Positions 1-55,202 are shown, numbered from the stretch's first letter. The stretch: 64,000 nucleotides of DNA from Antedon mediterranea (GCF_964355755.1 NC_092677.1:1386101-1450100); one strand, 5' to 3'. The notes: generated from the letters alone by a model not told the origin. Numbers and translations: made by a program.

Positions 1-1184
1 GCCACACTGTCAATAGGTTGGTTGAAAAATAAACTTTTTAACTGTTGATACAAACATATCATATTTTTGAATATTTTCTGTAAGGACCAAACTGCCTGTC
101 ATAATTAATTGGTTAATATTGCTATTATGTTATGTGGTAATAAAAATGAAGCACAGCTACACAACAAAAACTGCTTGAAGTTGGGGAAAATGTTTGGAAG
201 AAAGAAAGGGAAATGTTTTAATACTGAACTTTTGCAAACGATAAGGTTTCTTATTTAGTTTTTTTTTTTTAGTTATAGAAGGCTTTATGTGATATGACGT
301 GTTTTAATAATATTACAATATTTCTCTATTTCTTTAGCACTGACGACAACTTCTTTTATATCCAGTAAGTCAACTACATGAAGGTTCTGTTTGTTTGCAT
401 TGTATTTTAAATTTCCGGGATTTTGCATTTGCGAAAAGAAAAAAAAAAGATAAAAATGGAAAGGATATCCCCCGCTCCACCCCAGGATCTGTATGAGTGC
501 TTAAAAGGAAAATAAGTATGACCTTTGTATATTTGTCAACACTATATTATTGTAAAAAATTAAATTAAAACACATTGTAACACTATATCCTTCTGTATTA
601 TTTGTTCAGTTTTAAGTACAGAAGTTCCAAAGAAAGAGAATGATTGTAATTCAACTGGTCTTGTTGTTGGAATGGCGTTTGTTGGTGTGCTTATTGGATT
701 CATTATCTGTTTGCTTGTGGGTTTTATCATCAGCAAAATAAGGAAGTCACATGTACAGGTAAAGTATAATTCAGAAAGTAGAACCAGAAGCAAAAGTTTA
801 GACTTAAAAATAATGACCAAAGGTTTAATATACCGCATACTTAAGTAATGGAAACTATTTTAACATTAAATATGATATTTTATTTTAAAGGTACCTACAT
901 CGAAAAACACCAACCAATCAGGGGTAAGGATGTTACTTTAATTTAATTATTCAATTTCACTCGTCGTCCTCACTATTGTTACCAATATATCAATAAAGGT
1001 TTACACGATTTTCATTCTTCTTTTTGCATGCACTAAACTGTTGTATTTTGTTTAGCAGCAGGAGTATATGACTTATACTGGAGAGACAGATAAAGAAACC
1101 AACCACACATACCAAGATTTACAGAAGAAAGACGATAATCAAGCTGTATATGTAAATGTTAAAGCAAAAAAGGACAACAAATAA
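1..1184 (+). CDS. Ig receptor G1, 3' part only (end of C2 exon 1-16; stalk 338-364; TM 610-758; 891-923; tail 1056-1184)
   Basis: GT-AG exons splice in frame: ..ATLSI-ALTTTSFIS-ILSTEVPKKENDCNSTGLVVGMAFVGVLIGFIICLLVGFIISKIRKSHVQ-VPTSKNTNQSG-QQEYMTYTGETDKETNHTYQDLQKKDDNQAVYVNVKAKKDNK*. The 5' exons lie outside the window. Confidence 0.85.
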
Positions 1185-2202
1185 TATACATGTTTAAAAT
1201 AAAAATAAAATAAATATATTATTATAATTAATAGAATCATTGCAATGCTTTGAAACTACAATCACATACCTCTTGTTAATTTTATTATAGAAATAAAGAG
1301 AAATTAACTTTGAGAAAGTGTTTTCTCTATCTTAATTTAAAATTTAATAACAAAGAAATGTGAATGCTGCAATGTGTATCATCATTAACTAAACAAAGTG
1401 TACACAAGTACGTATAGTGACATCTACACCAATGGTATAATATAGCAAAATGTGAAGTAAATATCAAATTTGTAATGTAATGTAAAGATGAAAACCATAA
1501 ACATATAACTTGCAAAATATGAAAATAAGATATGTAACTAACAACGATACATTTATTAAAATTGAATTTCTTGTTTTTAGTTGTTGGAATTAAAACTTGC
1601 TTGTACTAGACCAACTTTGATGATCCGTTAATGTTTGAATGCATTAGTACATTGATATAGAAATGAAAATAAACTATACAATCAATGATTTTAACACCAA
1701 TACACGTAGCGTTATTTAAATTTAATTCACCTTCTAGATGTGTATTGGTTGAGTGCTACCATATATTTACAGAAAATTGAGTAATGTTCAAATTGATTTT
1801 GAAACGGAAAAATTAAACTCTATGGACAAATTGGACCGGGCCTTAAAGTTGGGTGCGATGCTGGTTCATTTCTGTTTTTAAAGAAAACATTTAAGAAATA
1901 CCACAGTTTGAGTTTGCGCGGTTGAACGCACTGTATAAATAAGGCCTAAAACCATGTGTTTAAATAATTGTTATTAATTAAAAAGATAAAGTACCATCTT
2001 GATTTGGAAGGAAATACAGTGCACTATTGTGAAGGAAGTAAAACTAATATATCACAAGTGTGAATGGCAATCTAGAATCATAACAATGACAGGAACAATC
2101 AATAATTCAGTATACAATACAGTAGAGTGTGGAAGAGTGCGAGACAATAAAAGTGAAATAGTCATCACCTAATAAAGCGGAAAAGATTACATATTCGATG
2201 CG

Positions 2203-4485
2203 ATGGAGGCAAGATGTACAAGTGCGATAGTCTTCTAATTGTTAAACTTTGTGGTTGTAAGTACAAATATTAAAAATATCTTCTTTTTTTTTCACAAAAT
2301 GACGCAATCGTAAATCGTTATTTGTTTAATTTAGTTTCAGATACAAGTGCACAAACACCAGTGCCAATGGATGCTGCTAAAGCCAAAGAGTTTGAAAATG
2401 TAACGATGGTGTGCACTTATACATTTCTGAAAGGAGATTCATTGTTGCAACTGGCTTGGTCAAAAACTGATGACAATGGTCAACAAAATAGGACCTGCTC
2501 TTGTGGTTTCTACAGGACTAACAACCAATGGTCGATACAGTTTGTCCAATAATAATCTTATAATAACTGATGTTGAACGAGGTGATACAGGCAACTATCG
2601 TTGTGCTTTTAGCACTAATCTTGGAAATTCTGGTGAAAACTTTGCAGCACTCACAGTCAATTGTGAGTATAATTATATACTGTGCAGAATTTGTATTTAA
2701 AACAATAAATCTCTTAATTAAAGTAATCTTTTAACCTAAAATGTTGATTTCCGACTTTTAAAGTTACTTTAGAATTTAGTTCAGTAATTAATTAGTAATA
2801 ATAATAATAACAGTACAGTAATTTTGAATTCAAATGAACATCAGCTAGTTTAAGCATATACAGGTCAAATAGCAATGTAAGTTAACAACAGTGAAAACTG
2901 ATGAGACAAATTTTCCTATGCATTAATGACGTCTTAGCCAATTTTAGACGACGGCTGTATATATGGTAAGCGCATATCGGAAGTATTATATCGCAATTGT
3001 CCTGATATCATATAGTATGTTCATCCCTAATACATTGTCAAACTATGGTTACCGGTAAATTCTTAATACGCAGATCTTGAAACACCCGTTGTGACTCCAA
3101 CCAAATTGTCTGCCAAGATGGATGATACAGCAGAGTTTTCTACTGAACCTGTTGGATTCCCAACACCGATTACCATCACATGGATCAAAGATGACGTCAC
3201 ACTTGATATTTCTGACATGCAAAAGTGTCCGCCTTCTGATGCAACATTGAAGATTAATAATGTAAATGAAACGGATGCAGGAGTGTATAAGTGTAGTGCA
3301 GAGAATGGTGCTTATAGTGGAGAAGAAGGAAAACTTAGTAATACTGCCACACTGTCGATAGGTTGGTTGGAAAATAAACATTTTAAATGTTGATACAAAA
3401 ATATTATATTTTATTGATATTTTCTGTAAGGACTAAATTGCCTGTCATAATTAATTGGTCCTATTATGCTATGTAGTAATGAATCTAAAGCACTGCAGCT
3501 ACACAACAAAAACTGGAAGTTGGGGGAAATGTTTGGGAAAAAGAAGGGAAATGTTTTAATACTGAACTTTTACATTGGTGCGATACGATAAGGTTTCTTA
3601 TTTTTTTTTTTTTTATTATAAAAGGCTTTTTGTGATATGACGTGTTTTACTAATATTGCTTGTTTCTCTATTCTTTTAGCATTAACGACAACATCTTTTA
3701 TATTCAGTAAGTCAACTACACGTAGGTTCTGTTTGTTTGCATTGTATTGTAAATTTCCAGGTTTTTGCTTTTGCGAAAAGAAAAAATGATAGAAATGGAA
3801 AGGGATATTTCCCTCCATCCCCATGATCTGTATCACTGCTTAAAAGGGACAATAATGATGTCCTTTGTATATTCAACATTACATTATTGTAAACATGTTT
3901 AAAACACATGGAAACACTAATCCTTCTGTTTTATTTGTTCAGTTTTAAGAAAAGAAGAAGTTCCAAAGAGAGAGAATGATTGTAATTCAACTGGTCTTGT
4001 TGTTGGAATGACGTTTGTTGGTGTGCTCATTGGATTCATTATATGTTTGATTGTGGTTTTTATCATCAGCAAAATAAGTAAGTCACATGCACAGGTAAAG
4101 TATAATTCAGACAGTAGAACCAAAATAAAAAGTGTAGCCTTAAAATGACAAATAGTTTAATGAAATACCGCAACTTAAGTAATGGAAACTATTTTAACAT
4201 TAAATATGATGTTTTATTTTGAAGGTACCTACATCGAAAAAAACCAACCAATCAGGAGTGAGGATGTTACATCAACATTCATCATTTATTATTATTACTA
4301 TTGTTACCAATATATCAATAAAGGTTTACACGATTTTCATTCTTCTTTATTTTTTTTTTAGCAGCAGGCGTATGTGACTTATACTGGTGAGACATATAAA
4401 GAAACAAACCACAGAAGATTTACAGAAGAAAGATGATAATCAAGCTGTGTATGTAAATGTTAAAGCTAAAAAGGACAACAAATAA
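2203..4485 (+). pseudogene. Ig receptor G2 pseudogene (leader ~2203-2254, V 2335-2662, C2 3074-3361, stalk 3680-3706, TM 3943-4094, 4225-4257, tail from 4362)
   Basis: Three lesions relative to paralogues: a 1-nt loss in the leader creating TAA; a frameshift in V (ORFs 2322-2552 and 2470-2700 are the two halves); a 5-nt deletion in the tail exon giving ..NHRRFTEER*. Confidence 0.85.
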
Positions 4486-5473: not shown

Positions 5474-7291
5474 ACGAAAGCAAAATGTACAAGTGCGATA
5501 GTGCTGTTGTTGTTGTAAGTACAAATATTTAAAAAAGATTCACAAAAGGACGCAATCGTAAATCCCTATTTTTTCGGATTTTTTATTTTAGTTGCAGATA
5601 GAAGTGGTCAAACACCAGTGACAGTGGATGCTGCAACAGCCAATGTAACAATGATGTATACTCCTACATTTCTGACAGGAGATTCATTGCTTACTGGCTT
5701 AGTCGACAGGTGATGATAGTGGTCAACAAGAATTAGGAAGTCCTCTTGTGATTTCTAAAACCAACCAATGGTCGATACAGCTTGTCCAATAATAGTCTGA
5801 TAATAATTAATGTTGAAAGAGATAATAATAACTATCGTTGCGCTGTTAATACTAATTTAGGAAATGATGGTGAAACCTTTGCAGCACTCACTGCCAATTG
5901 TGAGTAGTAGATGATGCATTTTATACAGAATTTACACTTATTGACTTTCAAAGTGAGATGATGCTTAAAAATATAAAATATAAAATCAAATGCCAATTAA
6001 TTATCTGGTTGGGGTGCACTGTGAGTAAAAAATACAAATTAAGTTCAGGACAAAGTACAAAAAGAGCGAATGTGGCTGTCATAAAATATCATAAAAATAC
6101 AGCTAGTTATGTGTCATACATTTACGGATATATATTACATTTAGGTCTAATATTTGAAAAATATTTTAAAATTGGTAAATGTAAACTTTCCATACACAGA
6201 TCTTGATGAACCAGTTTTTAACCTAATGTCTGTCAACGATGAAACCGCAACATTTAAATGTACTGAACCTGATGGATTGCCAACATCAATTACCACCACA
6301 TGGATCAAAGATGACGTCAGACTTGAGATACTGTCGGTCGTCGTATTCGAGCAAGGGTGCTTAACTAACGGCTTTGTTGACTGTGTATGATTTTACGCTT
6401 TAGATAGCGAAAATTTGATTATATTCGTCGTCTCCTAACCGTCGTGTTTCGTAAAGTCCAAATTAACAATTAATGACGTTGATGATGCAGATTAAGGAGT
6501 TTATCAGTGTAGAGCAGATAATGCTACTTACAGTGGAACAGATGTGAAACTTAATACTGCTACACTGTCAATAAGTTGGTAGGAAAATAAACTTTCTATA
6601 ACCAATTACCTGTCGTAATATGGTCCTTTATGGTTAATATTCCTATTATGCTATGTAGTAATGAATTTACACAACGAAAACAGGAAGTTGGGGAAAATGT
6701 TTGGGAAAAAGAAAGGGAAATGAATTCTAAACTTTTGCATTGGTGGGAAACGATAAGGTTTTTTATTTAGTTTATTTTAGTAATATAAATAGCTTTTGTA
6801 ATGAACGCATGACGTGTTTTACTAATATTGCTTGTTCTTTTCTATTTCTTTATCATTGACGACAACATCTTGTAAGCCCACATGATCTGCATGTGTGCTT
6901 AAAAAGTAAAATATGACCTTTGTATGTTTGTCAACATTATACATTATTGTAAAACACATGAAAACACTGATCCTTATCTATTAACGAGTGCGGGCGTATA
7001 TGCATTCAACTGGTCTTGTTGGAATGACGTTTGTTGGTGTGCTCATTGGATTCATTATTTGTTTCCTGTGGGTTTTATTATCAGCAAAAGTAACAATAAA
7101 TAAAAAACAAAGAAGTCAAAGGTAAAGTATATTCTGATTCATAAAGTAGAATTACAACAAAAAATAGTAAAATTCTCAAAGGTTACATGAACTACGGTAC
7201 ACTGCACAAGTAATGAAATGTATTTACATTAAGTTCTTGTTGATGTTTTATTTTAAAGGTATCTACATCAACAAACAGCAACAAATTAGGG
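5474..7291 (+). pseudogene. Ig receptor G3, heavily degraded pseudogene
   Basis: ATG>ACG and shortened leader. V remnant ~5592-5899 has deletions and Cys>Tyr. C2 remnant ~6200-6574 is interrupted by foreign DNA (~6329-6461) and has a TAA. TM remnant at ~7003-7120 and the 33-nt exon at 7259-7291. Tail exon missing. Confidence 0.8.
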
Positions 7292-8116: not shown

Positions 8117-8165
8117 ATGGTGATATGTGAATGTGCACTAATTTTTCTGATTTTCCAAAGCGACT
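8117..8165 (+). other. Orphan leader exon of the G5 type (MVICECALIFLIFQSD, phase-1 donor) with its upstream region
   Basis: ~7810-8258 is homologous to ~14170-14545 (G5 upstream region, leader and start of intron 1). Homology breaks at the RT fragment. Confidence 0.75.
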
Positions 8166-8257
8166 GTAAGTAGAAACTTAAATGTCATGCATGTTATTAG
8201 TATGGTCCTACTATTATTTTAACATAGACTATAAGACTGAAATGGCTATGGACGGTG

Positions 8258-8712
8258 ACTGAATCTATCCAGCCTAGCATGTGCCCGCACACTCCGAAAT
8301 CATGGAGTTTATGAAGAAGCTTAGAGTGGCTGACGCGATCAAACGCCTTTTCCCAGTCCAGAAAAATAGCATCAATAAGAGGATTGGCAATATCAAGGGT
8401 TTTAGCCCATTCATGGTATAAAGAAGTAGCTTGAGTAACACATGAGTGGCCTGGATAAAATCCATGTTGAACAGGGCTAATAAAACCATTACGCTGCAAG
8501 TGTTGGAGGAGATAATCTGCCACAAAGCGCTCAAGTACTTTACCCACGACTGAACAAAGTGAAATAGGTCTATAATTCGATATTTCGTTTCTGTTACCAG
8601 ATTTGAATATCGGAACGACATTGGCTAGCTTCCAATCCAAAGGAACTCTACCCTGATCAAGAGATAATTTAAAGATCCTACACAGGATAGGAGAAATGAT
8701 CGGGGCAGCCAA
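8258..8712 (-). mobile_element. Non-LTR retrotransposon (CR1/L2 group) reverse transcriptase fragment
   Basis: ORF 8197-8712 has P.DWKLANVVPIFKSG, NYRPISL, QHGF and AIFLDWEKAFDRVSH motifs; truncated at both ends. Confidence 0.9.
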
Positions 8713-8834
8713 GCTGATCCATTTGTTGTGATCGGTGAACGTGCAAAAAAATCATACCTTTTGTTGTTACACTATAACAGTATTATTATTATTAATATAA
8801 TTATATTAATTAATTTAAAATGTCATCGAAGCGT

Positions 8835-10562: not shown

Positions 10563-12982
10563 TTTCAGATACAAGTGCCCAAACACAAGTGTCAGTGGAT
10601 GCTGGTACAGCGAGAGAGTTTGACAATGTAACAATGGTGTGTACTCCATCATTTCTGTCAGGAGATTCATTGGTTCAACTGGCTTGGACAAAAGCTGATG
10701 AGAATGGTAAACAAGAAGGAAGTGCTCTTGTTATTTCTCCAGGATTAACATCCAATGGTCGTTACAGTTTGTCCAATAATAATCTTATAATAACTGATGT
10801 TGAACGAGGTGATGCAAGCAACTACCGTTGTGCTGTTAGCACCAATCTTGCAAATCCTGGTGAAAACTTTGCAGAACTCGCAGTCAATTGTGAGTACAGT
10901 ATAGTAGAATTTTATGAATATGCAATTATTTCTTCAAATACAATAAATAAGTGTGAGGATGATACTGTATTTTAGACATTATAATTTGTTTATGTTTAAT
11001 GTAAGAACATTTGGACATACAAGCTACAGTAATTGTTTTGTGTTAACTTATTTTAAACAAGTAGTGTATTTTGTTATTGATTTCATTTGTCAGTTAATTG
11101 TGAGTATAAAGTAAATTATGATGAATATTTGTAATTTGCACATTTCTTCAAATTATAATAAATTTTTGTCAGAATTTCAAAGCGAGATGATGATGCTTAG
11201 AAATATACTTATACAGTACTGTATTAAAAGCTTAGACTTATCAATGTTGTTGAAAAAAATAATTATTTGAAAATGTTTTGTCTTGAATGTTTAGACATAC
11301 AATATTGTACTTGTCGATAAATAGTATTGTGTAGCAATTGAAACAATTAATCACAAATTATTATCAAATTTATCATAAAAATAAAGTTGTGTTTGTGGTA
11401 ATACATGAGTATTTTAAAAATTGTTATGTAAGTTTTCCATGAACAGATATTGACAACCCAGGTTTGAAGCTAATGTCTAACGATGATGAAGCAGCAACAT
11501 TTGAATGTACTAAACCTGACGGATTCCCAACACCAATTAGCATCACATGGATCAAAGATGACGTCACACTTGATGTGTCTGATACACAAAAGTATCCGTC
11601 TTCTGATGCAACATTAACAATTAATGACGTTGATGAAACAGATGAGGGAGTTTATCAGTGTAGAGCAGAGAATGCTGCTTACAGTGGAACAGAAAGAAAA
11701 CTTAGTAACACTGTTACCCTCATCACATTAGGTTGGTACGATTGGAATCAAATAGTTTCATAACTGTTAATTGATACAATGAATACATACTATATATAAA
11801 CAGACATTTCATTCTTTTGGATCGTGTTTTCTCTACCACAAATAATTTTTCTTTTGTTTCTACACTGATATGGATAGCACTGGTGAGCTAACACAACAAA
11901 AATGTTGTTGTTGTTTCTTATTATTATGCAGGTGTTTTGATATGAACGCTTGATACGTTTCGATAATAATGCTTTTTTATTTATTTAGAATTTACGAGTA
12001 TTTCTATATCCAGTAAAGCCTGGTTTCCATAAAATCGCTACACCGTGTCGCCGACTGCTGTCGCCGACAGAGCGTAGCGATTCTATGGAAACGCTATAAT
12101 TTATCGGGGATCTAGTACGCGAGCGCTAAATATTCTTTGGTACACGCGTATACGACTCATCGCCGACAAAATCGGCAAAGTTGAACATGGTTGAACTTTG
12201 CCGATTTGTCAGCGATGAATTGGGGAGACCTCCCCGATGCGCGTCGGCGACATTTGCGCGTGTAGCGATTTCAATGGAAACGGTGTAGCGATTTTATGGA
12301 AACCAGGCTTTAGTCAACTATAAGTACGTTGATTTTTATTATAAAATTGTAAATTTCCGGGTTTCAACGAAAAGAATAAAAATAAATGAATGAAAATAAA
12401 TACAATCCGGGTTTGGTTCCAAAATAGACAAGCATGAAAATGGGACAAATCGATATGAGCATCGGTGTGTCTTAAAAGCAACAACGACAATTAGTATAAA
12501 TCAGAAAAAAAAAAGAAACTACGGTATATACAAAGGTTCCCTGGATCTGTACTGCTTACGCTCTGCATATGTATCACTTACACTTTAATATTATAAAAGG
12601 GTTAATTTCATACAATTATGAAAACACTGACACAGTACTGATAATTGTTCAGTTTTAAGTACAGAAGTTCCAAAGAGTGAGGGCGTGTGTAATTCAACTG
12701 ATTTTGTTGTTGGAATGACGTTTGTTGGTGTGCTCATTGGATTCATTCTCTGTTTGCTTGTGGGTTTTATCATCAGCAAAATAAGGAAGTCACATGAACA
12801 GGTAAAGTATAATTCTGAAAGCAAAAGTGTAGACTTAAATAGACCAAAGTGTGAATGAAATACCGCATACTTAAGTAATAGAAACTATTTTAACATTAAA
12901 TATGATGGTTTATTTTGAAGGTACCTACATCGAAAAACACCAACCAATCAGGGGTAAGGATGCTATACGTCACTTTCACTCG

Positions 12983-13019
<37 letters not shown>

Positions 13020-13173
13020 TTATTATTACTATTGTCACCAATATATCAATAAAGGTTTTACACGTTTTTCATTCTTTTTTATTTATTTTTAGCAGCAGGA
13101 GTATATGACTTATACTGGAGAGACAGAAAGAAACCAACCACACATACCAAGATTTACAGAAGAAAGACGATAA
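10563..13173 (+). CDS. Ig receptor G4 with frameshift-truncated tail and no own leader found (V 10563-10889, C2 11447-11731, stalk 11989-12012, TM 12653-12801, 12921-12953, tail 13093-13173)
   Basis: V, C2 and TM exons are open with canonical C/W/D.x.Y.C. A 2-nt deletion (GAGACAGAAAG vs GAGACAGATAAAG) gives QQEYMTYTGETERNQPHIPRFTEERR*. May be a pseudogene. Confidence 0.7.
12017..12309. mobile_element. MITE, Harbinger/Tourist-like, inserted in the stalk-exon splice donor of G4
   Basis: Perfect 30-bp TIR AGCCTGGTTTCCATAAAATCGCTACACCGT, flanked by TAA/TTA. The empty site GTAAGTCAACTATAAG is seen in G11 (41896). Internal palindrome at ~12158-12218. Confidence 0.9.
12984..13025 (+). repeat. (TCA)n microsatellite in the last intron; shorter versions in paralogues (~19485-19520, ~23448-23466)
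   Basis: Direct inspection. Confidence 0.9.
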
Positions 13174-14390
13174 TCAAGCTGTATATGTAAATGTTAAAGC
13201 AAAGAGGGACAACAAATAATGCATCTTTAATTGTTAATGAAATATCACAGTTTGTAAATTGTTGATTTTAATAATATAACTCAATCATTTATGGGTAAAA
13301 CTGATAAATTAATTAATTAATTTAAAATAACAAGAAAAAGTGTTAATTCTGCCATTAGTTATAAAAAACCATACACTTTACTTAGTGCCATTGCCTACCA
13401 ATGGTATATAGCAATGTGTGATGTAAAGATGAAAACCATAGTGTAAATAACAAGATACATTAATTATGCGAATCCTATGTCTTGGTCATTTTTTTCGTAC
13501 TGAAATTAAAATTTGCTTGTAGTTGAATCGTTGAATAGAAAAATAAGGATTTCATACACCAATATGCGTTTAAGTTCATATTATTAGAGGAGTGTTCTTT
13601 AATTTAATTTCTTGATTCGATTGCTTTGTTTGGTTGCTCGTTGCCATTTTTCATAACTGCATTCGTTCAAAATTATTTTGAAACGAATTTCATCGTCTTT
13701 CGTTCAAATGTAGCCTAATGACGCCTGACGCCCTCTACCTCACTCTATGTAGCTTTCATTTTCTTACAAAAGTGCTACACACTCTTTAGTCTTCACGCTC
13801 ATTAGACAATACAAGCAAGTATCGTTACAGGTTGGTTTATTTTTGTTAATATACTTAATACATAACTTGTCAAACTACTTTTTATTATTTAGCAAATTAA
13901 TTGTCACTAATAAAAACGGTAAGGTACTCAATCGATATTTGACATGGACGATACTGTATGGAGGAAGTAGACATAATATCAAAGTATGAATCCACACTCA
14001 TAACAATAACAGGAACAATCATTATTTCAATATACATTATATACAATAGTGGAATAGTTTTGCTGTATAGGCCAACTGCGTCGTATTTAAGATTCCTGCT
14101 TTAGATTTGTGGAGATGAAGACGGAAATGTAAACATGAAATGTGATTTTTTTTTCAACTTTGTGTTTGTAAAAAGACAGTTCTTTAGAAATATAGGAAAT
14201 ATTTTTATTCACAAAAAATTAATCTAAACATTGGGCCACCATACATTATGGAGGAAATAAACAAAAATTTAATTCAATTCGCATTCTGACAATACAAGCG
14301 ATCAGTGTCCTGTATAATATATACTGAGAGACAAGAGTGAATGTATCATTTTTGATTTTCAGATTGTTAGGCGTGACTTTAACAGAAGTA

Positions 14391-16355
14391 ATGGCGATAT
14401 GTGAGTGTGCACTCATTTTCCTGATTTTCCAAAGCGACTGTAAGTAGAAACTTTGAATATAATTGGTGTAATCAGTTGTATTGCATGTTTATTAGTAGGA
14501 CCCTACTATGGTTTCAAGACTGAAATGGCTATGGAGTTTGACGGCGTAGTAACCAATTTTTATTGTATTGTATTGTTTGTATTAATTGATTTGTTTTATA
14601 CAAATACATGAATACTCATTCATTTTGTGTATATAGTTATAAATGGTCAAACTCCTGTTGTCAATGTGCAAGATGCTACTGTTAAATTAGGTGAAGATGC
14701 TATTATCACCTGTGATTACACACTCACTGGTTCAAGAACCTTTCTTGGTGCTCAATGGTACAATAGCAATTCAGACGAAAACCTTCTTGTTAATACTGCA
14801 GTGTCACATTCTAATGGTAGATACACTGTTGATACCACACAAACTGGTGAAGCTACTCTCACCATTGCAACCTCAGTGTTGTCTGATGATGGATACTTTA
14901 GGTGTAGAATTGTTGATTCAATTACTGTTTCTGGTGAAAACAACGGAAATCTTACAGTTCAATGTAAGTAGGAATAAATGTACGAATGACATACTGTAGA
15001 TTTAAGTCATTCAAACAAATAAGCAATCATCATTTTAATATAAAGACAATTGATTTTGTCAATACAGATCTGGACACCCCCGTTTTGAAGTCGGACACAT
15101 TATCTGTCATGATAAATGACACCGCAACATTTACATGTACTCAACTTATCGGTGAACCAAAATCAATTACTGTCAGATGGACAAAAAATGATGCTACGCT
15201 AGACATTTCTGATATAGACAAATATCCGTCTTCTGATGCAACATTAATAATTAATCAAGTAGATGAAATGGACGACGGAAGTTATCGGTGTGTAGCAGAG
15301 AATGCTGCTTACAGTGGAGATGAAGGAAAACCGAGTAATCCTCTTATACTCTCAGTAGGTTGGTTGCAATAAAGTTGTTATAACTAATGTTACAATAATA
15401 TCATATTTTATTGAGATCATAGGTATAATAATTATAGTCTATCATAATTAGAGGGACTATTCCAACAATTATGTATTATGCGGTAATGAAAATAAAGCAC
15501 AGCTACACAATTTAGTTACAAAAGGCCTTTTTATAATATAGAACAAGACAATATATACAACCAATGCACTGACTATGTTTAAATAACATAATCATATGTA
15601 CTTTCTATTTCTTTAGCATTGACAACACCTTCTTCTACATCCAGTAGGTCAACTACACGTACGTTTTGTTTGTTTGCATTGCACTAATAGTTTCCTATGT
15701 TTAGGCCCTATAAGTTTGCGAATAAAAAATATGACTATTGTATATTTGTTATGTCACAATCACATGGTAACTCTGATCCTCTTGATTTGTACATCGTTTG
15801 TACACAGAAGTTCCAAATAGTGAGGATGTATGTACTTCAACTGGTCTTGTTGTTGGAATGACGTTTGTTGGTGTGCTCATTGGATTCATTCTCTGTTTGA
15901 TTGTGGTTTTTATCATCAGCAAAATAAGGAAGACAAAATCACAGGTAAAGTATAATTCAGAAGGTAGAAAAAAAAATAGTAAAATAGTCGAAAGTTAAGT
16001 GAAATACCGTCACACGTAATGGCAAACGTATTATCATTCAATTTACTTTTTGATGTTTTATTTCAAAGGCACCGACATCAATAAATGACAACCAATCAGG
16101 GGTAAGGATGCTATACTTCAACCTTAATTATTCGCTTTCACTTTGATCATTACCATCATTGTCACCAATACACAATAAAGGTTTGCATGATTGTAATTCA
16201 TCTTACTTTACTGTTGTATTTTTTAGCAGCAGGCGTATATGACTTATACTGGAGATACAGATAAAGAAACAAACAACACATACCAAGATTTACAGAAGAA
16301 AGACGATAATCAAGCTGTATATGTAAATGTTAAAGCAAAAAAGGACAACAAATAA
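14391..16355 (+). CDS. Intact V-C2-TM-Tyr-tail Ig receptor G5 (exons 14391-14439, 14637-14963, 15068-15358, 15617-15643, 15808-15944, 16069-16101, 16227-16355)
   Basis: All GT-AG, phases 1,1,1,1,0,0, no stops. Leader MAICECALIFLIFQSDFING; V: IITCDY..QWY..RYTV..ATLTI..DDGYFRC; tail AYMTY..TYQDL..VYVNV. Confidence 0.85.
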
Positions 16356-17407: not shown

Positions 17408-19733
17408 ATGATGACTACTTGTTGTTTGCTACTACTTGTTCTTGTATTTGGTAAGTACCAAGCTTTAATGTTTTGTTGTCAAACTAAGAAAACATTTAAT
17501 TTTGTTTGTATTTAAATTACACATTTCCGTCATTTTTTGAAATAAAAATAGTTATACAGTTATGTTATTTCCGGATTATAGATGGTGGTTCAAATTTTCA
17601 ACAATCATAAAAATAAACTATCAAGTGAAAGTTATTCCGGTTGTCTGTGTTTCTATGAAAAAATGCATTTACTAGAATTTATTATTTTGTTATTATCATA
17701 ATTCTGATTTAAACACTTTTCAGTATAGGCCAAATATGTCATATTTCACAGAAAATCTTAGTTTCAGATGCAAGTGCCCAAACACTAGTGACAGTGAATG
17801 CTGGTACAGCAAAAGTTGATGAAGCTGCAACAATGATGTGTACTTATACACTTGTACCAAATGATTCTTTGCTTCAACTGGTTTGGACAAAAGCAGATGA
17901 CCATGGTCAAGCAGTAGGAATTGCTCTTGTGACTTCTACAGGAGAAACAAGCAATGATCGTTACAGTTTATCCAATAATAATCTTATAATAATTGATGTT
18001 GAACGAGAAGATGCAGACAACTATCGTTGTAGCGTTAGCACCAATGGTGGAAATACTGCTGACAACTTTGCTAATCTCACGGTCTATTGTGAGTATGTAG
18101 CTAATTATGAATGAGTGTTCAAAGTTTTTGAAATGAAAAATATTAAAACGTCAACCCACCAATAAAATAAGACGTTAATACACTTGCATTTAACTTACAT
18201 TTTACAATTGTTGTGGAAATGTTGCAATGCATACGCAAAATAGGCCTCCTGATTTGTTCGTTAATGAGTATTACTATTATTACTGTAGTCATGAATGAAC
18301 ATGTTTGCATTACAGATCTTGAAGAACCAGTTCTGAATCCAACAAAGTTGTCTGTCCACGCAACTGAAACTGTGACATTTACATGTTCTAACCTTATTGG
18401 TGTACCAACACAAATTACCGTCACGTGGATCAAAGATGACGTCACACTTGATGTGTCTGATACAATAAAGTATCCGTATTCTGATACAACATTGACGATT
18501 AATGACGTTGATGAATCAGACGAGGGCGTTTATCAGTGTAGAACAGAGAATGCTGCTTATAGTGGAACAGATGGAAAACTTAGTAATACTGCCACAATGT
18601 CAATAGGTTGGTGGAATAAACATTTTGATAAATAATATATTTTATTAGCATCATTGTATACGTATTTTCTGCATGTCCTAATTATAAATGGAATATTCAT
18701 ATTACAGTATATTATGTCATGCGGTAATAAAAAATAAAGCACAGATACACAGTGAAATCTGAACGTTTCAGATTTATTTAGTTATAAATTGCCTTTTGTA
18801 ATATGAACGCATGGCGTGTTTTAGGCTACTAAATATTGCTTGTTTTTTATTTCTTTAGCATTGACAACAACATCTTTTATATCCAGTAAGTCAACTACAC
18901 GTAGGTTCTGTTTGTTTGCATTGTATTGTAAATTCCCGGGTTTTTGCATTAGCGAAAAGAAAATAAGGATAGAAATGGAAAGGGATATCCCCGCTTCATT
19001 CCATGATCTGTATGAGTGCTTAAAAAGGAAAATAAGTATGACCTTTACATATTTGTCAACACTACATTATTGTAAACATGTTTAAAACACATGGTAACAC
19101 TAATCCTTCTGTATTATTTGTTCAGTTTTAAGTACAGAAGTTTCAAACAGAGAGAATGATTGTAATTCAACAGGTCTTGTTGTAGGAATGATGTTTGTTG
19201 GTGTGCTCATTGGATTCATTATATGTTTGCTTGTGGGTTTTATCATCAGCAAAATAAGGAAGTCACATGCACAGGTAAAGTATAATTCAGAAAGTAGAAC
19301 CAAAAGCAAAAGTGTATACTTAAAATGACCAAAGGTTTAATGAAATACCGCACACTTCAGTAATGGAAACTATTTTAACATTAAATATTATGTTTTATTT
19401 TGAAGGTACCGACATCGAAAAACACCAACCAATCAGGGGTAAAGATGCCATACTTCAACTTTAAGTATTCACTTTACTCATTATTATCATCATCATCATC
19501 ATCATCATCATTATTATTATTACTATTTCACCAATATATCAATACAGGTTTACACGATTTTCATTCTTCTTTTTCCATGCACTAAACTTCTTAATTTTTT
19601 GTAGCAGCAGGCGTATATGACTTATACTGGAGAGACAGATAAAGAAACAAACCACACATACCAAGATTTACAGAAGAAAGACGATAATCAAGCTGTATAT
19701 GTAAATGTTAAAGCAAAAAAGGACAAAAAATAA
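17408..19733 (+). CDS. Intact Ig receptor G6 (exons 17408-17450, 17762-18088, 18316-18606, 18859-18885, 19126-19274, 19406-19438, 19605-19733)
   Basis: Leader MMTTCCLLLLVLVFVSDASA; in-frame splicing of all 7 exons; canonical Ig Cys/Trp in both domains. Confidence 0.88.
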
Positions 19734-19850
19734 TATACATGTTTAGAATATAAAAATAAAAGAAATACATTATTATTATTCCTATTATTAATGGAATATC
19801 ATTGGTTTGAAACTACAATCACATACATCTTGTTGATTTTGTTATAGAAT

Positions 19851-21500: not shown

Positions 21501-21502
21501 CG

Positions 21503-32223: not shown

Positions 32224-35147
32224 ATGGAGGGGATATATGGTGTAATAATAATTCTAATGTTTCAACTATGTTCTTGTAAGTAAGAAATTAGAAAACAAAT
32301 AAATAAATAATTAAAAAAAATAATTTAAAAATAATAATAATAAAAATACAAAACTTTCTCGAAACACATAAATAAGTAATTAAAACAAATAATGTTAAAA
32401 GTGTGATGTAGAATGTTAATTTTAGTTAAAATGCTCAGCAGATGTGTCTGTGATTGAATAGAAATGTTATACTTGAAATGTGAAAAAGAAGGTAGGTAAT
32501 CGAATTTCGCTGACGTTTTTAAACAAAAAATGTCAGCGAAATTCGATTACCTACCTATTGATTTTTTTCTATGTCAAAATATATAAATTCATATCATGTA
32601 TTCTATTTCAGTTTTAAATGGTCAAACTGAACCTATAGTCAATGTACAAAATGCTAACTTTAAAGTAGGTGAAAATGCTGTTATCATCTGTGATTACACA
32701 CTCGGTGGTGGTACAAAAACACTTCAGGCTGCTCAATGGTACAATAGCACATCAACAGGAGATAGGTTAAACCTTCTTGTTAATAGTGCTCTAACAAAGC
32801 CAAATGGTAGATATGCAGTTGATACCACACAAACTGGTGTGGTTACTCTCATTATTGCAAACACAGTATTGTCTGATGATGGATACTATCTATGTAGAAT
32901 TGTTGATTCACCTGCTGTTGAAACTGGTGAAAATGTTGGAAAGCTTACTGTTCAATGTAAGTATGAATGTTTACATCATTTAACAATGAATAAATATTTT
33001 ATATTAAAAATAAGTGTGATTGTGAACAGAATGGTGGTCTTTTAATGTTTACCAGTGGCTTACCAATAATCAATTAATATTTTATTTCTCAGAATAAATT
33101 GCACATCAAACTAACAACAAATATCTAAATATCTACCAAGAAAAAAATAATAATAGGAAGGGTAAGACTATCAAACAATATCGTTGGTCAAAGAGAGAAG
33201 CTATCTCTATTGAGAGTACATTATATTCAATTAATATACTAATTAAACTAGAGTATTGAACAATATACTTTGAGAAAGTATTCATAAAAAAAGATAAATA
33301 GGGAACGCCATATAAACAAACATCATGCCGGTACTACACTATCAAACAATATCGTTGGTCAAAGAGAGAAGCTATCGCTATTGAGAGTATATATACTAAT
33401 TAAACTAGAGTATTGAACAATTTGAGAAAGTATTCATAAAAAAAGATAAATAGGGAACGCCATATAAACAAACATCATGCCGGTACTACACTAATTGAGA
33501 TACAACAATAGTCTGATGCGTTTTGATAGTTGATTTCTGGAATATACAATGCATCTTTTTAGTTTATACACTTCGACATGGTGAATGTAAGACTGTTTAT
33601 TTTGCCTTTACAGATCTTGAAGAACCAGTTCTAAATCCAACAAACTTGTCTATCAACGAAATAGAAACTGTGACATTTACATGTTCTAACCTTATTGGTG
33701 TACCAACAATTACCGTCACATGGATCAAAGATGGCAATGAACTTGGTGTTTTTGATACAGACAAGTATCCGTCTTCTGATGCAACATTAACGATTAATGA
33801 CGTTGATGAAGAAGATGAAGGAGATTATCAGTGTAGAGCAGAGAATGCTGCTTATAGTGGAACAGATGGTAAACTTAGTAATACTGCCACACTGTCAATA
33901 GGTTGGTGGGAATAAACATTTTGATAAATAATATATTTTATTGGCATTATAGTATAAGTATGTTCTGCATGTCAAAATTATAAATGGAATATTCATATAT
34001 ATTATGTCATGCGGTAACAAAAATAAAGCACAGCTATACAGCGAAATCTGAAAGTTTCAGTTTATTAAAGCCATTTTTATAATATGAACGCATGACGTGT
34101 CTTACTATTGCTTGTTTGATTTATATTTCTTTAGCATTAACGACAACTTCTTCTATACCCAGTAAGTCAACTACACGTAGGTTCTGTTTGTTTGCATTGT
34201 ATTTATTGTAATTTCCGGGTTTTTCCATTTTCGTAAAGCAGGATAGGAATGGGAGGGGATATCCCCCGCCGAATTCCAATGATCTGCATGAGTGCTTAAA
34301 AGGGAAAATAGTGATGACTTTTGTATAACATTTGTCAACACTACATTATTGTAAACATGTTTAAAAGACATGGAAACACTGATCCCTTTGTAGGCCTATG
34401 TATGGTTTAGTTGCATTGCCTTCCGGAATTTTGCGAAAAGCAAATAAAGGATAAGAAATCTGGGAGAGGGTGCAGACAGGATCTGCATGAGTGCTTAAAA
34501 AGTAAAATATGACCTTTGTATAAACATGTTTGAAATAACATGGAAACACTTATCCTTCAGTATTAATTGTTCAGTTTTAAGTACAGAAGCTCCAAAGAGT
34601 GAAAATGATTGTAATTCAACTGGTCTTGTTGTTGGAATGACGTTTGTTGGTGTGCTCATTGGATTCATTATCTGTTTGCTTGTGGGTTTTATCATCAGCA
34701 AAATAAGGAAGTCACATGCACAAGTAAAGTATAATTCAGAAAGTAGAACCAAAAGCAAAAGTGTAGACTTGAAATGACCAAAGGTTTAATGAAATACCGC
34801 ATACTTAAGTAATGGAAACTATTTAAACATTAAATTTGATTTTAAAGGTACCTACATCGAAAAATACCAACCAATCAGGGGTAAGGATGTTACTTCAACT
34901 CTAATTATTCAATTTCCCTCATCATCATTATTATTATTTCTATTGTCACCAATATATCAATAAAGGTTTACACGATAATTCTTTTTTTGCATGCACTAAA
35001 CTGTTGTATTATTTTTAGCAGCAGGCGTATATGACTTATACTGGAGAGACAGATAAAGAAACAAACCACACATACCAAGATTTACAGAAGAAAGACGATA
35101 ATCAAGCTGTATATGTAAATGTTAAAGCAAAAAAAGACAAAAAATAA
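32224..35147 (+). CDS. Intact Ig receptor G8 (exons 32224-32275, 32612-32956, 33614-33901, 34135-34161, 34575-34723, 34848-34880, 35019-35147)
   Basis: Leader MEGIYGVIIILMFQLCSFLNG; G5-like V domain (VIICDY..QWY..DDGYYLC); all exons in frame. Confidence 0.88.
32490..32556. repeat. Near-perfect hairpin in G8 intron 1
   Basis: AGGTAGGTAATCGAATTTCGCTGAC..GTCAGCGAAATTCGATTACCTACCT. Confidence 0.9.
33167..33493 (+). repeat. ~160-170-bp tandem duplication in G8 intron 2
   Basis: ACTATCAAACAATATCGTTGGTC..CATGCCGGTACTAC occurs twice with small deletions. Confidence 0.85.
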
Positions 35148-35836: not shown

Positions 35837-38816
35837 ATGATGACTTTTTGTTTGCTGCTATTTGTTCTTGTATTTGGTAAGTACCAGGCTTTAATGTTTT
35901 GTGGGTGCTACTATAAGTTAAGTCTTTGTCTATGTAGAGCATCTTGTGTATATGTTTGTATTATGTTCTAGTGCAGTATATGGAGAGCCATCTCGATAGT
36001 GCTTTGCACTCATGGCAATCCTCAGGGTGCTGCACCGCTGTGTTGTCATGTATTGTTGTGCCTGAAAATTGAATAAAATAAAAATAAAAAATAAAATTAA
36101 CATTTGATTTTCAATTTTTTTTATAAAACCATATACATGTAGGCCTATAGTACCTTTCCGTCATTGTTTGAGATACAAATAATCATCATGCATGTTATTT
36201 TCGAATTTATAGAGGTCGTTCTAACTTAGGTTAACAATTATAAAAGTAAACTATTAATTACAAAATTTTGAAATTTGCCGGACCACTGGTTTGGTTTGTG
36301 CGAGAGCCCAGAACGGAAAACACAATAGAAAGAATGCATTCACTAGAATGTTGATTGTTGTCGTATCTTTCTGATTTTAATACTTTGCAGCATAATGTTA
36401 TCAATTAATCAAATTTATTCACCTCCCTTAGGAGAAACATATAAAAACTCTACAGCAAAATAAAACACATTAAAATAAAGATTCACATGAATCAATAGAT
36501 TAAAATGGTTTTAACGAGTTAAATAAAGTGTCAAAACCATTGTGAAATAGGGCAGACTTGTTATATTTCAAAATCAAGTTAAGTAACTTATTTAGTTTCA
36601 GATGCAAGTGCACAAACACAAGTGACAGTGAATGCTGGTACAGCAAAAGTTGATGAAGCTGCAACAATGATGTGTACTTATACACTTGTACCAAATGATG
36701 CATTACTGCAACTGTCTTGGACAAAAGCTGATGAGAATGGTCAACCAGTAGGGAATGCTCTCGTCACTTCTACAGGTCAACCAAACAATGGTCGATACAG
36801 TTTTTCCAACGATAATCTTATAATAACTGATGTTGAAAGAGGTGATGCAGTCAACTATCGTTGTGCTGTTAGCACCGTTAATGGAAATCCTGGTGATGAC
36901 TTTGCTAATCTCACAGTCTATTGTGAGTATATGTTTTGGAGCAAAACATTTTTTTTTTTTTATTTATTTAAATATGTTTATTTCTGGTACTGTACAGTAC
37001 ATGTCAGTTAGTACAGTAATTTTAATTTCATCTTTGAATCAGAAGTTTCACAATCAGAAAAACAAATGAAACCAATAATTTGGATAAAAAGTAAAAGATA
37101 TATCATCATCTATTGTGATATTCAATTTATTTCGGTGGTATGATGGTAATTAACTTTCCAATTGATGTGTTTGCCTTTTAGAGTATAATGTAATCATAAT
37201 GGTATCATTTACAAATTTAATCTAAAAAATGTATATAATAATATGATATTAAAGTGAAAATTATAATGCAGGGATGTTATTTACATCAGAACCAAACGAA
37301 TATTCAATATCCTATGTATGTATTATATTGTCAAAGAAGAGTACTAAACATTAACAATTACTGTATTACAATTGGTAGGCATGTCAATTGTGTAATTTTA
37401 AACAAATGAGTATCTAAGAACTGTACAGTATAATTTTGCCATTTCAGATCTTGAAGTACCAGATTTGAAACCAGTAGAATTGCATGCCACATTAAATGAA
37501 ACAGCAACATTTATATGTTCTGAACTTGAAGGTTTACCAACACCAATTACCATCACATGGATCAAAGATGACAATCCACTTGGTGTTCCTAATACAGACA
37601 AGTATCCAACTTCTGATGCAACATTAACGATTAATGACGTTGATGAGAGAGATGAGGGAGCTTATCAGTGTAGAGCAGAGAATGCTGCTTACATTGGAGA
37701 GGAGGGAAAACTTAGTAATACTGCCACACTGTCAATAGGTTGGTGGGAATAAACATTTTAATAAATAATGTATTTTATTAGCATCATTGTATAAGTCATT
37801 TCTGCATGTCATAATTATAAATGGAATATTCATATTACAGTATATTATGTCATGTGGTAACAAAAATAAAGCACAGGTAAACAGCGAAAACTGAAAGTTT
37901 TAGTTTATTAGTCATTTTTATAAAATGAACGCATGACGTGTCAGAGTATTGCTTGTTTGCTTTCTATTTCTTTAGCATCGACGACAACTTCTTCTATACC
38001 CTGTAAGTCAACTACACGTAGGTTTTGTTTGTTTGCATTGCATTGTAAATTTCCGGGATTTTGCATTTGCGAAAAAAAAAGGATAGCAATTGAAAGGAAT
38101 ATCCCTGCCCCATCCCCATGATCTGTATCATGCCTTAAAAGGGAACATAATGTCAACACTACATTATTGTAAACATGTTTAAAACACGGCATGGTAACAC
38201 GATCCTTCTGTATTATTTGTTCAGTTTTAAGTACAGAAGTTCCAAAGAGAGAGAATGATTGTAATTCAACTGGTCTTGTTGGAATGACGTTTGTTGGTGT
38301 GCTCATTGGATTCATTATCTGTTTGCTTGTGGTTGTTATCATCAGCAAAATAAGGAAATCACAGGCACAGGTAAAGTATAATTCAGAACGTAGAACCAAA
38401 AGCAAAAGTGTAGACTTAAAATGACGAAAGGTTTAATGAAATACCGCACACTTAAGTAATATAAACTATTTTAACATTAAATATGATGTTTTATTTTGAA
38501 GGTACCTACATCGAAAAACGCCAACCAATCAGGGGTAAGGATGTTACTTCAACTTTAAGTATTCAATTTCACTCGTCGTCGTCATCACAATCATTATTAT
38601 TACTATTGCCACCAATATATCAATAAAGGTTTACACGATTTTCATTCTTTTTTTTGCATGCACTAAACTTTTTTATTTTTTTTTTAGCAGCAGGAGTATA
38701 TGACTTATACTGGAGAAACAGATAAAGATACAAATCACACATACCAAGATTTACAGAAGAAAGACGATAATCAAGCTGTATATGTAAATGTTAAAGCAAA
38801 GAGGGACAACAAATAA
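35837..38816 (+). CDS. Intact Ig receptor G9 (exons 35837-35876, 36596-36922, 37448-37738, 37976-38002, 38225-38370, 38502-38534, 38688-38816)
   Basis: Leader MMTFCLLLFVLVFVSDASA; G6-like V; TM exon one Val shorter; intact tail EYMTY..TYQDL..VYVNV. Confidence 0.88.
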
Positions 38817-39891
38817 TATACATGTTTAAATAAAAATAAAATGAATATATTTTTACTATTAATGGAATATCATTACTATGATTTGAAACTACATGAATCA
38901 CATACCTCTTGATGATTTTATTATAACAAATAAAGAGAAATCATAACCTGTAGAAAGTGTTTTCTTTCTCTTGATTTAACTCTTTAACGCGTACAAATTT
39001 AATAACAAGAAATGTGAATGCTGTAATTTGTATTATCATTAACTAAACAAAATATACACAAGTACCTATAGTGACATAAAATATACCAATATTATATAGA
39101 AACATGTGATATAAAGATGAAAACCACAGACATACTTGAAAAATGTAAAAAAAGATATGTAACTAACAACGATACATTTATTAAAATGTTATTTTCTATT
39201 TTTGATTTTTTTGAATTAAAACTTGCTTGTATTAGACCAACTTTGATTCGTTACTTTGATTTTAATGTTTGAATGCATTAGTACATTGACATAATGAATA
39301 TATACTAGAATAGACTAGACAATCAATTCTTTTAACACCCGTGTAATTGTATTATTGTTATATAGCATTCTTTAATTTAATTCGCCTCGAGATGTGCTTT
39401 GGTTGGTTGCTGCCATATTTTTTCAAAGAGTTTAGTAATGATCAAATTGATTTTTAAACGTACAAACTAAATTCTAGGGACAAATTGGACGGAGGTTTTA
39501 AAGTTATGTGCGATTCAGGTTCATTTGTTTTTTAGGGAAGACATTAAGAAATACCTATAAAAATAATAAATAGTAGTTTGAACTACTTACTGTATAAATA
39601 CAATTTTTAAAAGACTAGGTGTTTTATGATTTTATTTTAAATAATTGATACTATTAAAAAAGAATAATTGTATCATCTTTATTTGGACGGAAGTACAGTG
39701 CACTATAATTATGAAGGAAGTAAAACTAATATATCACAAGTATGAATGGCAATCCAGAATCATAACAACGACAGGAACAATCAATACTTCAGTATACAAT
39801 ACAGTACAGTGTGGTAGAGTGCAAGACAATAATAGTGAAATAGTCACCACCTAATGAAGCGGAAAAGATTTCCATATTTTACAGATTTGTA

Positions 39892-40120
39892 ATGGAGGCG
39901 AAAAGTAAAAATGCGATGATTGTAAGTACAAAAATATTTAAAATATTTTTTCACACAATGACGCAATCGTAAATCGTTAATAGCTATTTTGTTTAATTTA
40001 TTTTCAGATAAAAGTGGAAAGTTTGACAATGTAACAATGATGTGCACTCCTACATTTGTTACAGGAGATTCGTTGCTTCAACTGGTTTTGTCAAAAGTTA
40101 ATGTCAGTGGTCAACAAGAA
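39892..40120 (+). pseudogene. Ig receptor G10 remnant (leader lacking its hydrophobic core plus the 5' third of V)
   Basis: ATGGAGGCGAAAAGT..ATGATT|GTAAGT, then FDNVTMMCTPTFVTGDSLLQLV; homology then stops. Confidence 0.8.
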
Positions 40121-40475
40121 GCTAGCTAGCTAGGCCTTCTTGCAGTACAGAAGTACAGAGCAAAGATCGTTAAAAAAAGATGCCATGCCCTTTAAATCAT
40201 GCACAGAAGAGGGCGGTGTTTCGCCTTACTACAAATAATGTACTCGTAAAGTTGCATTTCCTTCTTGTAAATAGATTGCTGTGAAGAAACTTTGATGATT
40301 TGAACAGTTATTAACTAAATATATTTTGTTTGTAAAGTAAATATATCTCTGTTTAAGGTAGGTTTATGGCACGCCAGGATGGACATACATAGTTATGTCC
40401 GTCCTAGCATGTCATATAGGTTCAAACACTAGATATAGGTACGTTAGCTAAATACTGCATGAGGCCTGTAACATC

Positions 40476-41895
40476 ATGACATACTCATGTTGCTTTACTG
40501 TCGCTGTGCTACTAATTGTGCAAATAGTTATATATACATATATATATGTAAACATTTTCAGTATTTTTTGTTTGTATTGTTTGCATTTCCTATAATTTTG
40601 TTTCCAGAAATGACAAAAAAACCTTTCTTGACATCAACACAATGTTTAATAAATGGTAGTAGACATACAGCACATGTTTTTAGCAAGCTGTCTTTAAAAA
40701 TTAGTAACAGCTTTATTTTTTATAACACCAAATCAACGTAGCTACCCTAAACTCGAAAAACATGCAATAAAAGTGCACAATATGCAGTATTTATAATAAC
40801 TACTGTACAGTTATTTTTTAGTTTTAGGTACACATGCACAAACTACATCTGTGACAGTGACTAATGATACAATTAAAGTTGGTGAGATTACAACGATGAC
40901 GTGTAGTTATACAGTTTCAGATGCATTGGATCGACTTGTTTGGTTCAGAGCTGATGCTGATGGTACTGCATTATTAAGAAACCCTATCGTATCTAGTGAT
41001 ACAGGAGAAACAAGCAATGGTCGTTACAGCTTATCTAATGACAAGGATCTTATGATAAGTGCTGTTGAAGTAAATGATGCAGGAAATTATCTGTGTAGAA
41101 TCATCACACAAAATGGCCAAGTTGCTGACGACTATGATGAACTTATAGTTCAATGTGAGTTTGTCATTCCTTTGTTGTTTTTTTCTAGTAAAAGTTAAAG
41201 ACATAACTTCTGTTGGACAATCTTCAAATTACAATAAATAATTATAATTAAAAATTATCAAAATGTCATGAAAATAAAGCTGTGTTTATGGTATTACATT
41301 TAATAGTCAAATTGTCTTTACACTGCAGATCTTGACACACCAGTTGTGACTCCAGCCCAATTGTCTGTCAAGATGGATGATACAGCAACGTTCACAACTG
41401 AACCTGTTGGATTTCCAACACCAATTACCATCACATGGATCAAAGATGACGCCACACTTGATGTGTCTGATACAGAAAAGTATCCAAATTATGATGCAAC
41501 ATTAACCATTGATAATGTAAATGAGACGGACGAGGGAGATTATAAGTGTAGAGTAGAGAATGCTGCTTACATGGGAGAAGAAGGAAAACTTAGTAATACT
41601 GTTAAACTCATCACAGTAGCAGGTTGGTACGGTTGGAATTAAATAGTTTTAATTGATACAATGAATACATATAAAGACATTTTATTCTTCGGATCGTGTT
41701 TTCTCTACCACCAAAAATTGTTCTTTGTTTCTACACCGATATGGATAACAACGGTGAGCTAACACAACAAAACGGAACCCTTTAGTTGTTTGTTTTTGTT
41801 ATTATTATGCAGGTGTTTTATTATATTAACGCATGATAAGTTCCGATAATAATGCTTTTTTATTTATTTAGAATTTACGACTACCTCTATATCCA
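40476..41895 (+). pseudogene. Ig receptor G11, 3'-truncated (putative leader from 40476, V 40822-41154, C2 41329-41622, stalk 41872-41895; TM and tail absent)
   Basis: V and C2 exons are open. The leader-like MTYSCCFTVAVLLIVQI lacks a phase-1 GT donor. Array homology stops at ~41930 and resumes as 3' UTR at ~53740. Confidence 0.7.
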
Positions 41896-55088: not shown

Positions 55089-55202
55089 ACAATTATGAAA
55101 TTGGTTGAAAATTAAATAATTTTTTTTAGATTCATTATACATGTAAAATTCCATTAATGTGCACCCTATTGTGACAACCAGTGAGTTGTAAAACTCCCTG
55201 CA

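Follow-up and report, generated by a model that had tools for sequence, protein, structure and literature searches.

The first 41,895 nucleotides of a 64,000-nucleotide stretch of the feather star Antedon mediterranea genome (GCF_964355755.1 NC_092677.1:1386101-1450100; the whole stretch is termed the window here) carry a head-to-tail array of immunoglobulin (Ig) receptor genes. The encoded receptors combine a V-type Ig domain, an I-set Ig domain, a transmembrane (TM) segment and a cytoplasmic tail with conserved tyrosines. The gene anatomy, the splicing of the family, a gradient of divergence from V domain to tail, the shuffling of exons and the tail motifs are all observed. We consider it slightly better than even (a probability of about 0.55) that the array belongs to a crinoid-specific family of paired activating and inhibitory recognition receptors, for which we infer an immune role. 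This crinoid Ig-receptor family is real, of a known kind and apparently undescribed, and is a testable candidate for self/non-self recognition in echinoderms.

Self-comparison of the window reveals a 2-4 kb unit repeated along the + strand from position 1 to about 41.9 kb, resolved by exon anchors into 11 head-to-tail copies (G1-G11, 1-41895, +). Six copies, G4-G9, were modelled end to end. Five of these six (G5-G9) are open seven-exon frames of 329-339 amino acids, with GT-AG at all six introns, intron phases of 1,1,1,1,0,0 and the exon order signal, V-type Ig, I-set Ig, linker, TM and two tail exons. The initial annotation, made from the sequence alone, had described at least 11 head-to-tail paralogues with five intact, in agreement with these models; it had counted four tiny exons per gene, where we find three (27-55 nt). 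Aligned DNA identity between intact copies is 72-86%, and contigs from the DNA runs (X1-X4, one sample) correspond to single copies with zero differences over 323-469 nt. The copies are therefore real and not assembly duplicates, which rules out the artefact that the initial annotation had flagged for checking. The same runs contain 56-60% of sampled words, a figure that lacks a control locus and was not used for polymorphism.

The tail of about 60 residues has four tyrosines, all within the last exon, and ends in YQDL-x9-YVNV in all five intact genes. The more general pattern Yxx[L/I]-x8-9-YxxV is kept in a second crinoid genus, Anneissia: of the models scanned, it is present in 5 of 20 from Antedon and in 5 of 17 from Anneissia, and many that do not have it are without TM segment or tail. 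The tails of G6 and P0066 (P numbers label protein models) share 31 of 46 aligned residues. Shuffling of the G6 tail produced a motif resembling the ITAM (immunoreceptor tyrosine-based activation motif) in 535 of 200000 trials, one Anneissia model has a strict ITAM, and the YVNV of the window genes also holds a YxN Grb2-type site. The tyrosine-bearing tail of the initial annotation is supported.

A candidate partner of opposite sign comes from two RefSeq predictions outside the window. The V domain of XP_071958242.1 (P0051) is identical to that of P0046, whose tail is of the window type, at 104 of 107 positions, and to that of G6 at 87 of 107. The I domains of P0051 and P0046 agree at 77 of 96 positions, and beyond the I domain there is no significant local match. 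The TM segment of P0051 is unrelated to that of P0046, and its tail carries two ITIMs (immunoreceptor tyrosine-based inhibitory motifs) and one immunoreceptor tyrosine-based switch motif (ITSM). Three of its four tyrosines fit one or the other, a score matched by 27 of 200000 shuffles. Near-identical V domains on unrelated tails suggest the pattern of paired receptors. A further model, P0052, has the P0051-type TM segment behind a V domain of subfamily B and is without a tail.

Divergence between copies is graded along the gene. Among G5-G9 the V domains average 43% amino acid identity (23-80) and the I domains 64%; the mean is 79% for the TM exon and reaches 86% and 92% for the two exons of the tail. 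Synonymous difference drops from 0.46 (V) to 0.087 (last exon), and identity across introns 5-6 is 78-95%. The parallel gradients in identity and synonymous difference, together with the similar introns 5-6, indicate old ectodomains mounted on a recently homogenised 3' cassette. The V and I exons have been shuffled: G8 is a mosaic whose V domain clusters with G5 and whose I domain clusters with G6. A V tree constrained to group G6, G8 and P0006 was rejected (approximately unbiased test, p-AU 7e-64), and forcing the V-subfamily-B genes together in the I tree gave borderline rejection only (p-AU 0.046), with constraint groups named after the trees had been seen and P0011 and the Anneissia rows excluded. 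A TM-tail cassette of identical type lies behind differing ectodomains in P0066, P0114 and P0011. In the I-domain tree 21 of 23 Antedon domains fall in one clade that holds no Anneissia rows (support 100/100), and the V-domain tree splits by genus (88/81), as would be expected if the two sets were largely separate expansions. These expansions, and five intact genes standing beside several broken ones, bear out the birth-and-death turnover that had been proposed.

Spliced contigs at the predicted boundaries, which the initial annotation had named as a check, exist. They come from run X5, another sample under the same species label, which is RNA by guess, supported by its exon-exon joints. One X5 contig joins V to I at the boundaries predicted for G7 (21971/22325), and X5 contigs carry TM-tail 1 and tail 1-tail 2 joints for which DNA runs X1 and X2 show a depth of zero. 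A second contig placement contains an I-TM joint with the 27-letter linker between, followed by TM-tail 1 and tail 1-tail 2. Variant joints skip tail 1, or combine a later linker donor with a later TM acceptor, and a V-to-linker joint (32910-34135) may represent skipping of the I exon. No signal-to-V joint is among the rows listed. Between record 23 and G7 there are 34 differences over about 322 V bases. The Ig-receptor family is thus transcribed; because the long contigs differ from the window copies, transcription is established for the family, with no individual window copy pinned.

The initial annotation had called the genes V-C2 receptors. Its V-type first domain stands, and the second domain is I-set: Pfam I-set scored above cut-off in all seven second domains tested, C2-set_2 appeared in two of the seven and below the Pfam cut-off, and the C2 label is rejected. 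Among seven first domains Pfam V-set was above cut-off in three, below it in two and without a match in two; V-domain cysteines C26 and C89 are invariant. The B-strand cysteine is missing from the I domains of G2 (3074-3361) and G11 (41329-41622) and of the relatives P0007 and P0049. The extracellular spacer consists of a 27-nt linker exon and a short stalk, with no Fn3-like domain. An in-frame stop lies 4-10 codons past the I exon in all eight copies checked, and the RefSeq models P0007 and P0047 end after the I exon or the linker, so secreted forms are possible. A homodimer prediction for the P0046 ectodomain scored 0.01, gave no answer and was used neither way.

We propose that the window receptors are likely the activating arm of a recognition system, and the predicted ITIM-bearing paralogue its inhibitory arm. 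The V domain would bind a variable surface ligand on microbes or on foreign or damaged cells. Receptor clustering would lead a Src-type kinase to phosphorylate the tail, whereupon YQDL-x9-YVNV would recruit a Syk/Shark-type tandem-SH2 kinase and its YxN site would recruit Grb2, and this recruitment would drive killing or uptake by coelomocytes. With its near-identical V domain and its ITIM/ITSM tail, the paralogue would recruit SHP-type phosphatases, set the threshold and dampen the response. Unequal crossover and conversion would renew the V domains, with one signalling cassette retained. Binding, kinases, cell type and outcome in this scheme are all drawn from the motifs and from vertebrate precedent.

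Several observations weigh against the paired-receptor proposal. The strict ITAM consensus, given for Hydractinia Alr as Yxx[I/L]x6-9Yxx[L/I] in the accessible text of 10.1101/2022.03.04.482883, fails in all five intact genes, in which the last position is V, not L/I. The last tyrosine doubles as an ITIM match in four of the five such tails from Anneissia, which leaves the activating sign as something we infer. The P0051-type TM segment and tail were not found in the window, and the ITIM partner is one of the 20 Antedon models scanned, a predicted RefSeq model from outside it. A search with the P0051 TM segment and tail gave only the Antedon clusters of P0051 and P0052 (65 candidates) and no ITIM-type counterpart in Anneissia. 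RefSeq also contains P0003, a chimera of G8 and G9 exons, and the pairing of V domain with ITIM tail therefore stays a predicted model. No listed spliced contig is assignable to a single window copy. As to selection, the ratio of nonsynonymous to synonymous substitution (dN/dS) in the V domain of G4, G6, G7 and G9 is 1.16, not significantly above 1 (bootstrap 0.245), beside 0.64 in the I domain of the same genes. Pooled loops resembling complementarity-determining regions gave 1.63 (bootstrap 0.113), and only the FG loop stood out (six codons, dS 0; one of six subsets tried).

The strongest competing explanation, itself unlikely, is a non-immune recognition or adhesion code for nerve wiring, regeneration or cell sorting, in the manner of nectin/JAM/Dpr-DIP proteins, with the tyrosines serving trafficking or growth signalling. 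The non-canonical ITAM would suit such a code, and so would the structural resemblances. The predicted first domain of G6 (predicted local distance difference test score, pLDDT, 93) has C and C' strands and no clear C'' strand, and its best fold matches are the V domains of nectin-2, CD155, CRIg and TIGIT, along with NCAM and RIG-5, at about 13-24% identity, a comparison that settles fold class, not function. Matches in sequence to solved structures are titin, Dscam, Robo, contactin and JAM. The structure matches are generic Ig similarity. Against an adhesion code stand rapid gene birth and death with largely separate expansions in two genera, a V dN/dS near 1 where the I domains of those genes (G4, G6, G7 and G9) give a lower value, and a sister receptor with ITIM/ITSM motifs. 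Such turnover, such a V ratio and such a sister receptor are more typical of host-defence receptors.

Rather more doubtful is an Alr-like histocompatibility complex, in which polymorphic V domains would bind matching self alleles and the tails would set fusion or rejection. As adults, feather stars live singly and do not fuse into colonies. The initial annotation had offered an allorecognition family as one of its candidates, and no evidence specific to allorecognition emerged. A V+I ectodomain, one exon per domain, clustering, pseudogenes, shuffling and ITAM/ITIM tails are all reported for Alr (accessible text of 10.1101/2022.03.04.482883), and echinoderms are stated to reject allografts in the available part of PMC11359984. 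Alr tails, however, diverge more than the ectodomains and most Alr proteins carry an Fn3-like fold, whereas in the feather-star genes no part is better conserved than the tail, and an Fn3-like domain is absent.

Least probable is a largely neutral, decaying duplication with one or two functional genes among drifting copies in a transposon-rich region: broken copies (at least three of 11 clearly so, two more incomplete or frameshifted), a V dN/dS near 1 that fits relaxation, and an array interrupted by a long interspersed nuclear element (LINE), a miniature inverted-repeat transposable element (MITE) and other insertions would all suit it, but in five copies the frame is open and no splice site is lost despite V differences of up to 77%, the tail exons have a pN/pS of 0.33-0.40, and the tail motif is kept in Anneissia (the G6-P0066 comparison above).

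Judged from its sequence features, the crinoid family resembles CEACAM1/3-type pairs, Alr and Botryllus FcoR but fails the membership features of each. NITR, CD300/TREM, SIRP and CHIR likewise form clusters of V or V-I receptors, have members of both the inhibitory and the activating kind and evolve by birth and death. In those groups activating members signal for the most part through an adaptor and a charged TM residue, whereas a charged TM residue is present in none of the five intact window genes (0/5, G5-G9), and NITR, CD300, TREM, SIRP and CHIR are absent from the named matches. The CEACAM N domain is without disulfide cysteines, whereas the feather-star V domain keeps both, and there is no detectable orthology between the two. 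The likeness to CEACAM1/CEACAM3-type pairs, as far as the available text of PMC5112662 describes them, lies in clustering, species-specific expansion, near-identical V domains in ITIM/ITSM and ITAM-like members, and an activating motif in the receptor's own tail with a YxN site adjacent. In that text Xenopus Ceacam pairs are termed paired receptors at 80-93% IgV identity, YxN motifs occur in most ITAM-like Xenopus Ceacams, and Ceacam YxxL motifs are split by phase-0 introns; the feather-star tail tyrosines, in contrast, all lie in one last exon.

Hydractinia Alr offers an invertebrate cluster of single-pass V + I-set receptors with one exon per domain, pseudogenes, exon shuffling, ITAM/ITIM tails and possible secreted forms (accessible text of 10.1101/2022.03.04.482883). 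The feather-star genes differ from it in being without the Fn3-like spacer, in their canonical Ig cysteines and tryptophan, and in tails that are homogenised, not divergent; no Alr protein is among the 45 named matches of our I-domain profile search. Botryllus FcoR is a clustered Ig-superfamily system in an invertebrate deuterostome, with ITIMs and other tyrosine motifs. The window AVYVNV fits its core-2 motif [A/D]VYxxV and YQDL fits core-1, but core-2 is paired 29-33 residues apart in FcoR and single in the window genes, and YxN-type immunoglobulin tail tyrosine (ITT) motifs are reported absent from FcoR (PMC12582321, available portion). A fester-like partner gene was not seen in the window, where the only open reading frames (ORFs) identified between and beside the copies are of transposon type. 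Sea urchin V-C1 transmembrane models are likewise putative echinoderm receptors with a V-type Ig domain, but their second domain is C1 where ours is I-set (PMC3308324, in part). The comparison literature also includes PMC11999971. No description of the family was found in titles and the starts of abstracts, a scope that leaves most subscription papers outside it and a listing in a genome-paper table possible.

Vertebrates, Botryllus and Hydractinia are known to have clusters of Ig receptors whose tyrosine motifs oppose one another; our searches met with no such description for echinoderms, in which the immune expansions reported concern other classes of receptor. If the proposal is right, the matched crinoid pair would mean that this logic arose independently a fourth time, in the sister group of chordates, and would supply named, testable candidates for how echinoderms discriminate self from non-self. 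A broader version, which we hold tentatively and at somewhat less than even odds, is that crinoids independently evolved a chromosome-scale analogue of the leukocyte receptor complex, with dozens of shuffled V-type receptors that couple a given ligand-binding domain to an ITAM-like/Grb2 tail or to an ITIM/ITSM tail. Such an analogue would be the first echinoderm paired-receptor system described and a candidate molecular basis of missing-self or allograft recognition in echinoderms.

Relatives of the array are concentrated in crinoids. The I-domain profile search scored 7989 candidates and returned 45 proteins; 24 of the top 26 matches are from Antedon mediterranea or Anneissia japonica (43-84% identity), the rest being large multi-Ig proteins. 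Among 213 fetched proteins, no single domain of a protein not named as crinoid scores above 40 bits, whereas family members reach up to 168. Orthology to the conserved adhesion or neural proteins that lend RefSeq its names (JAM/CTX, nectin, NCAM, Robo, Dscam) is rejected on these scores, and no one-to-one conserved orthologue, which the initial annotation had asked to be looked for, is among the matches. No sea urchin protein is among the named close relatives. Close relatives thus appear confined, in these searches, to Antedon and Anneissia, with largely separate expansions, in keeping with the lineage specificity first suggested. Word-seeded searches miss remote homologues and have limited reach for short remote relatives, and giant multi-Ig proteins largely fill the best 150 of 2975 matches in an all-library profile search, which could conceal short, distant relatives in other echinoderms.

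Beyond the window Antedon has a further 17 or so models, counted after isoforms had been merged by eye; they lie on a contig of 28,587,047 bases, a length shared by the contig that bears P0051, and none reproduces a V or I exon of the window exactly. With window copies, some of them share 91-95% identity and could represent a duplicated block or an uncollapsed haplotype. The first four exons of G8 are contained exactly in XP_071959103.1, and the V, I and TM exons of G9 are identical to parts of XP_071958726.1. Six Anneissia models lie on one 273,287-base scaffold. In public annotation the family goes unseen, its members bearing a dozen names that have nothing to do with one another (among them sax-3-like, NCAM-like, peroxidasin-like and JAM-like). 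An Anneissia model named adhesion GPCR G6-like (P0025) starts with the family V-I module, as a real fusion or an annotation chimera. P0067, P0072, P0142 and P0185 place family V domains with EGF-like and other modules and with other tails, pointing to what may be a wider modular crinoid Ig complex.

The intact genes are all on the + strand, with exons in the order given above. G5 (14391..16355; 329 aa, V subfamily B) comprises 14391-14439, 14637-14963, 15068-15358, 15617-15643, 15808-15944, 16069-16101 and 16230-16355. G6 (17408..19733; 331 aa, V subfamily A) comprises 17408-17450, 17762-18088, 18316-18606, 18859-18885, 19126-19274, 19406-19438 and 19608-19733. The exons of G7 (21503..23685; 332 aa) are 21503-21557, 21645-21971, 22325-22606, 22823-22849, 23101-23249, 23367-23399 and 23560-23685; those of the mosaic G8 (32224..35147; 339 aa) are 32224-32275, 32612-32956, 33614-33901, 34135-34161, 34575-34723, 34848-34880 and 35022-35147; and those of G9 (35837..38816; 329 aa) are 35837-35876, 36596-36922, 37448-37738, 37976-38002, 38225-38370, 38502-38534 and 38691-38816.

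The other copies, also on the + strand, had been described as truncated or pseudogenised. This holds for G2, G3 and G10, which are broken, for G4, which is frameshifted, and for G11, which is incomplete; G1 is truncated solely by the window edge. The visible 3' half of G1 (1..1184) has open exons, namely the end of the I exon, linker 338-364, TM 610-758 and tail 891-923 and 1059-1184. In the G2 pseudogene (2203..4485) the V exon (2335-2662) and the last exon are frameshifted and the I exon is open. The G3 pseudogene (5592..7291) has stops in V and I, a degenerate TM exon and no last exon. G4 (10563..13219; V 10563-10889, I 11447-11731, linker 11989-12012, TM 12653-12801, tail 12921-12953 and 13096-13219) has lost 2 nt from its last exon, a frameshift that removes the two distal tyrosine motifs. 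A signal-peptide-like exon of G5 type lies upstream at 8117..8165 (+); its assignment to G4 is uncertain, with a reverse transcriptase (RT) fragment between the two. G10 (39829..40120) is a remnant with an upstream region and a broken 5' piece of the V exon. G11 (40822..41895) has V 40822-41154, I 41329-41622 and linker 41872-41895; its signal, TM and tail exons were not found within the window.

The RT fragment occupies 8200-8751 (-), ahead of the G4 V exon. A probable MITE of about 300 bp with matching terminal inverted repeats (12014-12312) sits directly past the G4 linker donor, and an open LINE ORF2 of 1004 codons with endonuclease and RT domains (25364-28378, +) separates G7 from G8. An exact 495-bp tandem duplication that includes the G7 last exon (23559-24550) has low read depth and is either a very recent duplication or a local assembly error. 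An orphan family 3' flank (53740-53995) stands 12 kb past G11, with no coding exon found nearby. Two ORFs at 56222-57478 (-) match consecutive halves of DUF7869, and with more minus-strand ORFs extending to 59.4 kb they probably form a spliced DNA-transposon gene. A 56-bp sequence is repeated ten times in tandem at 54538-55089.

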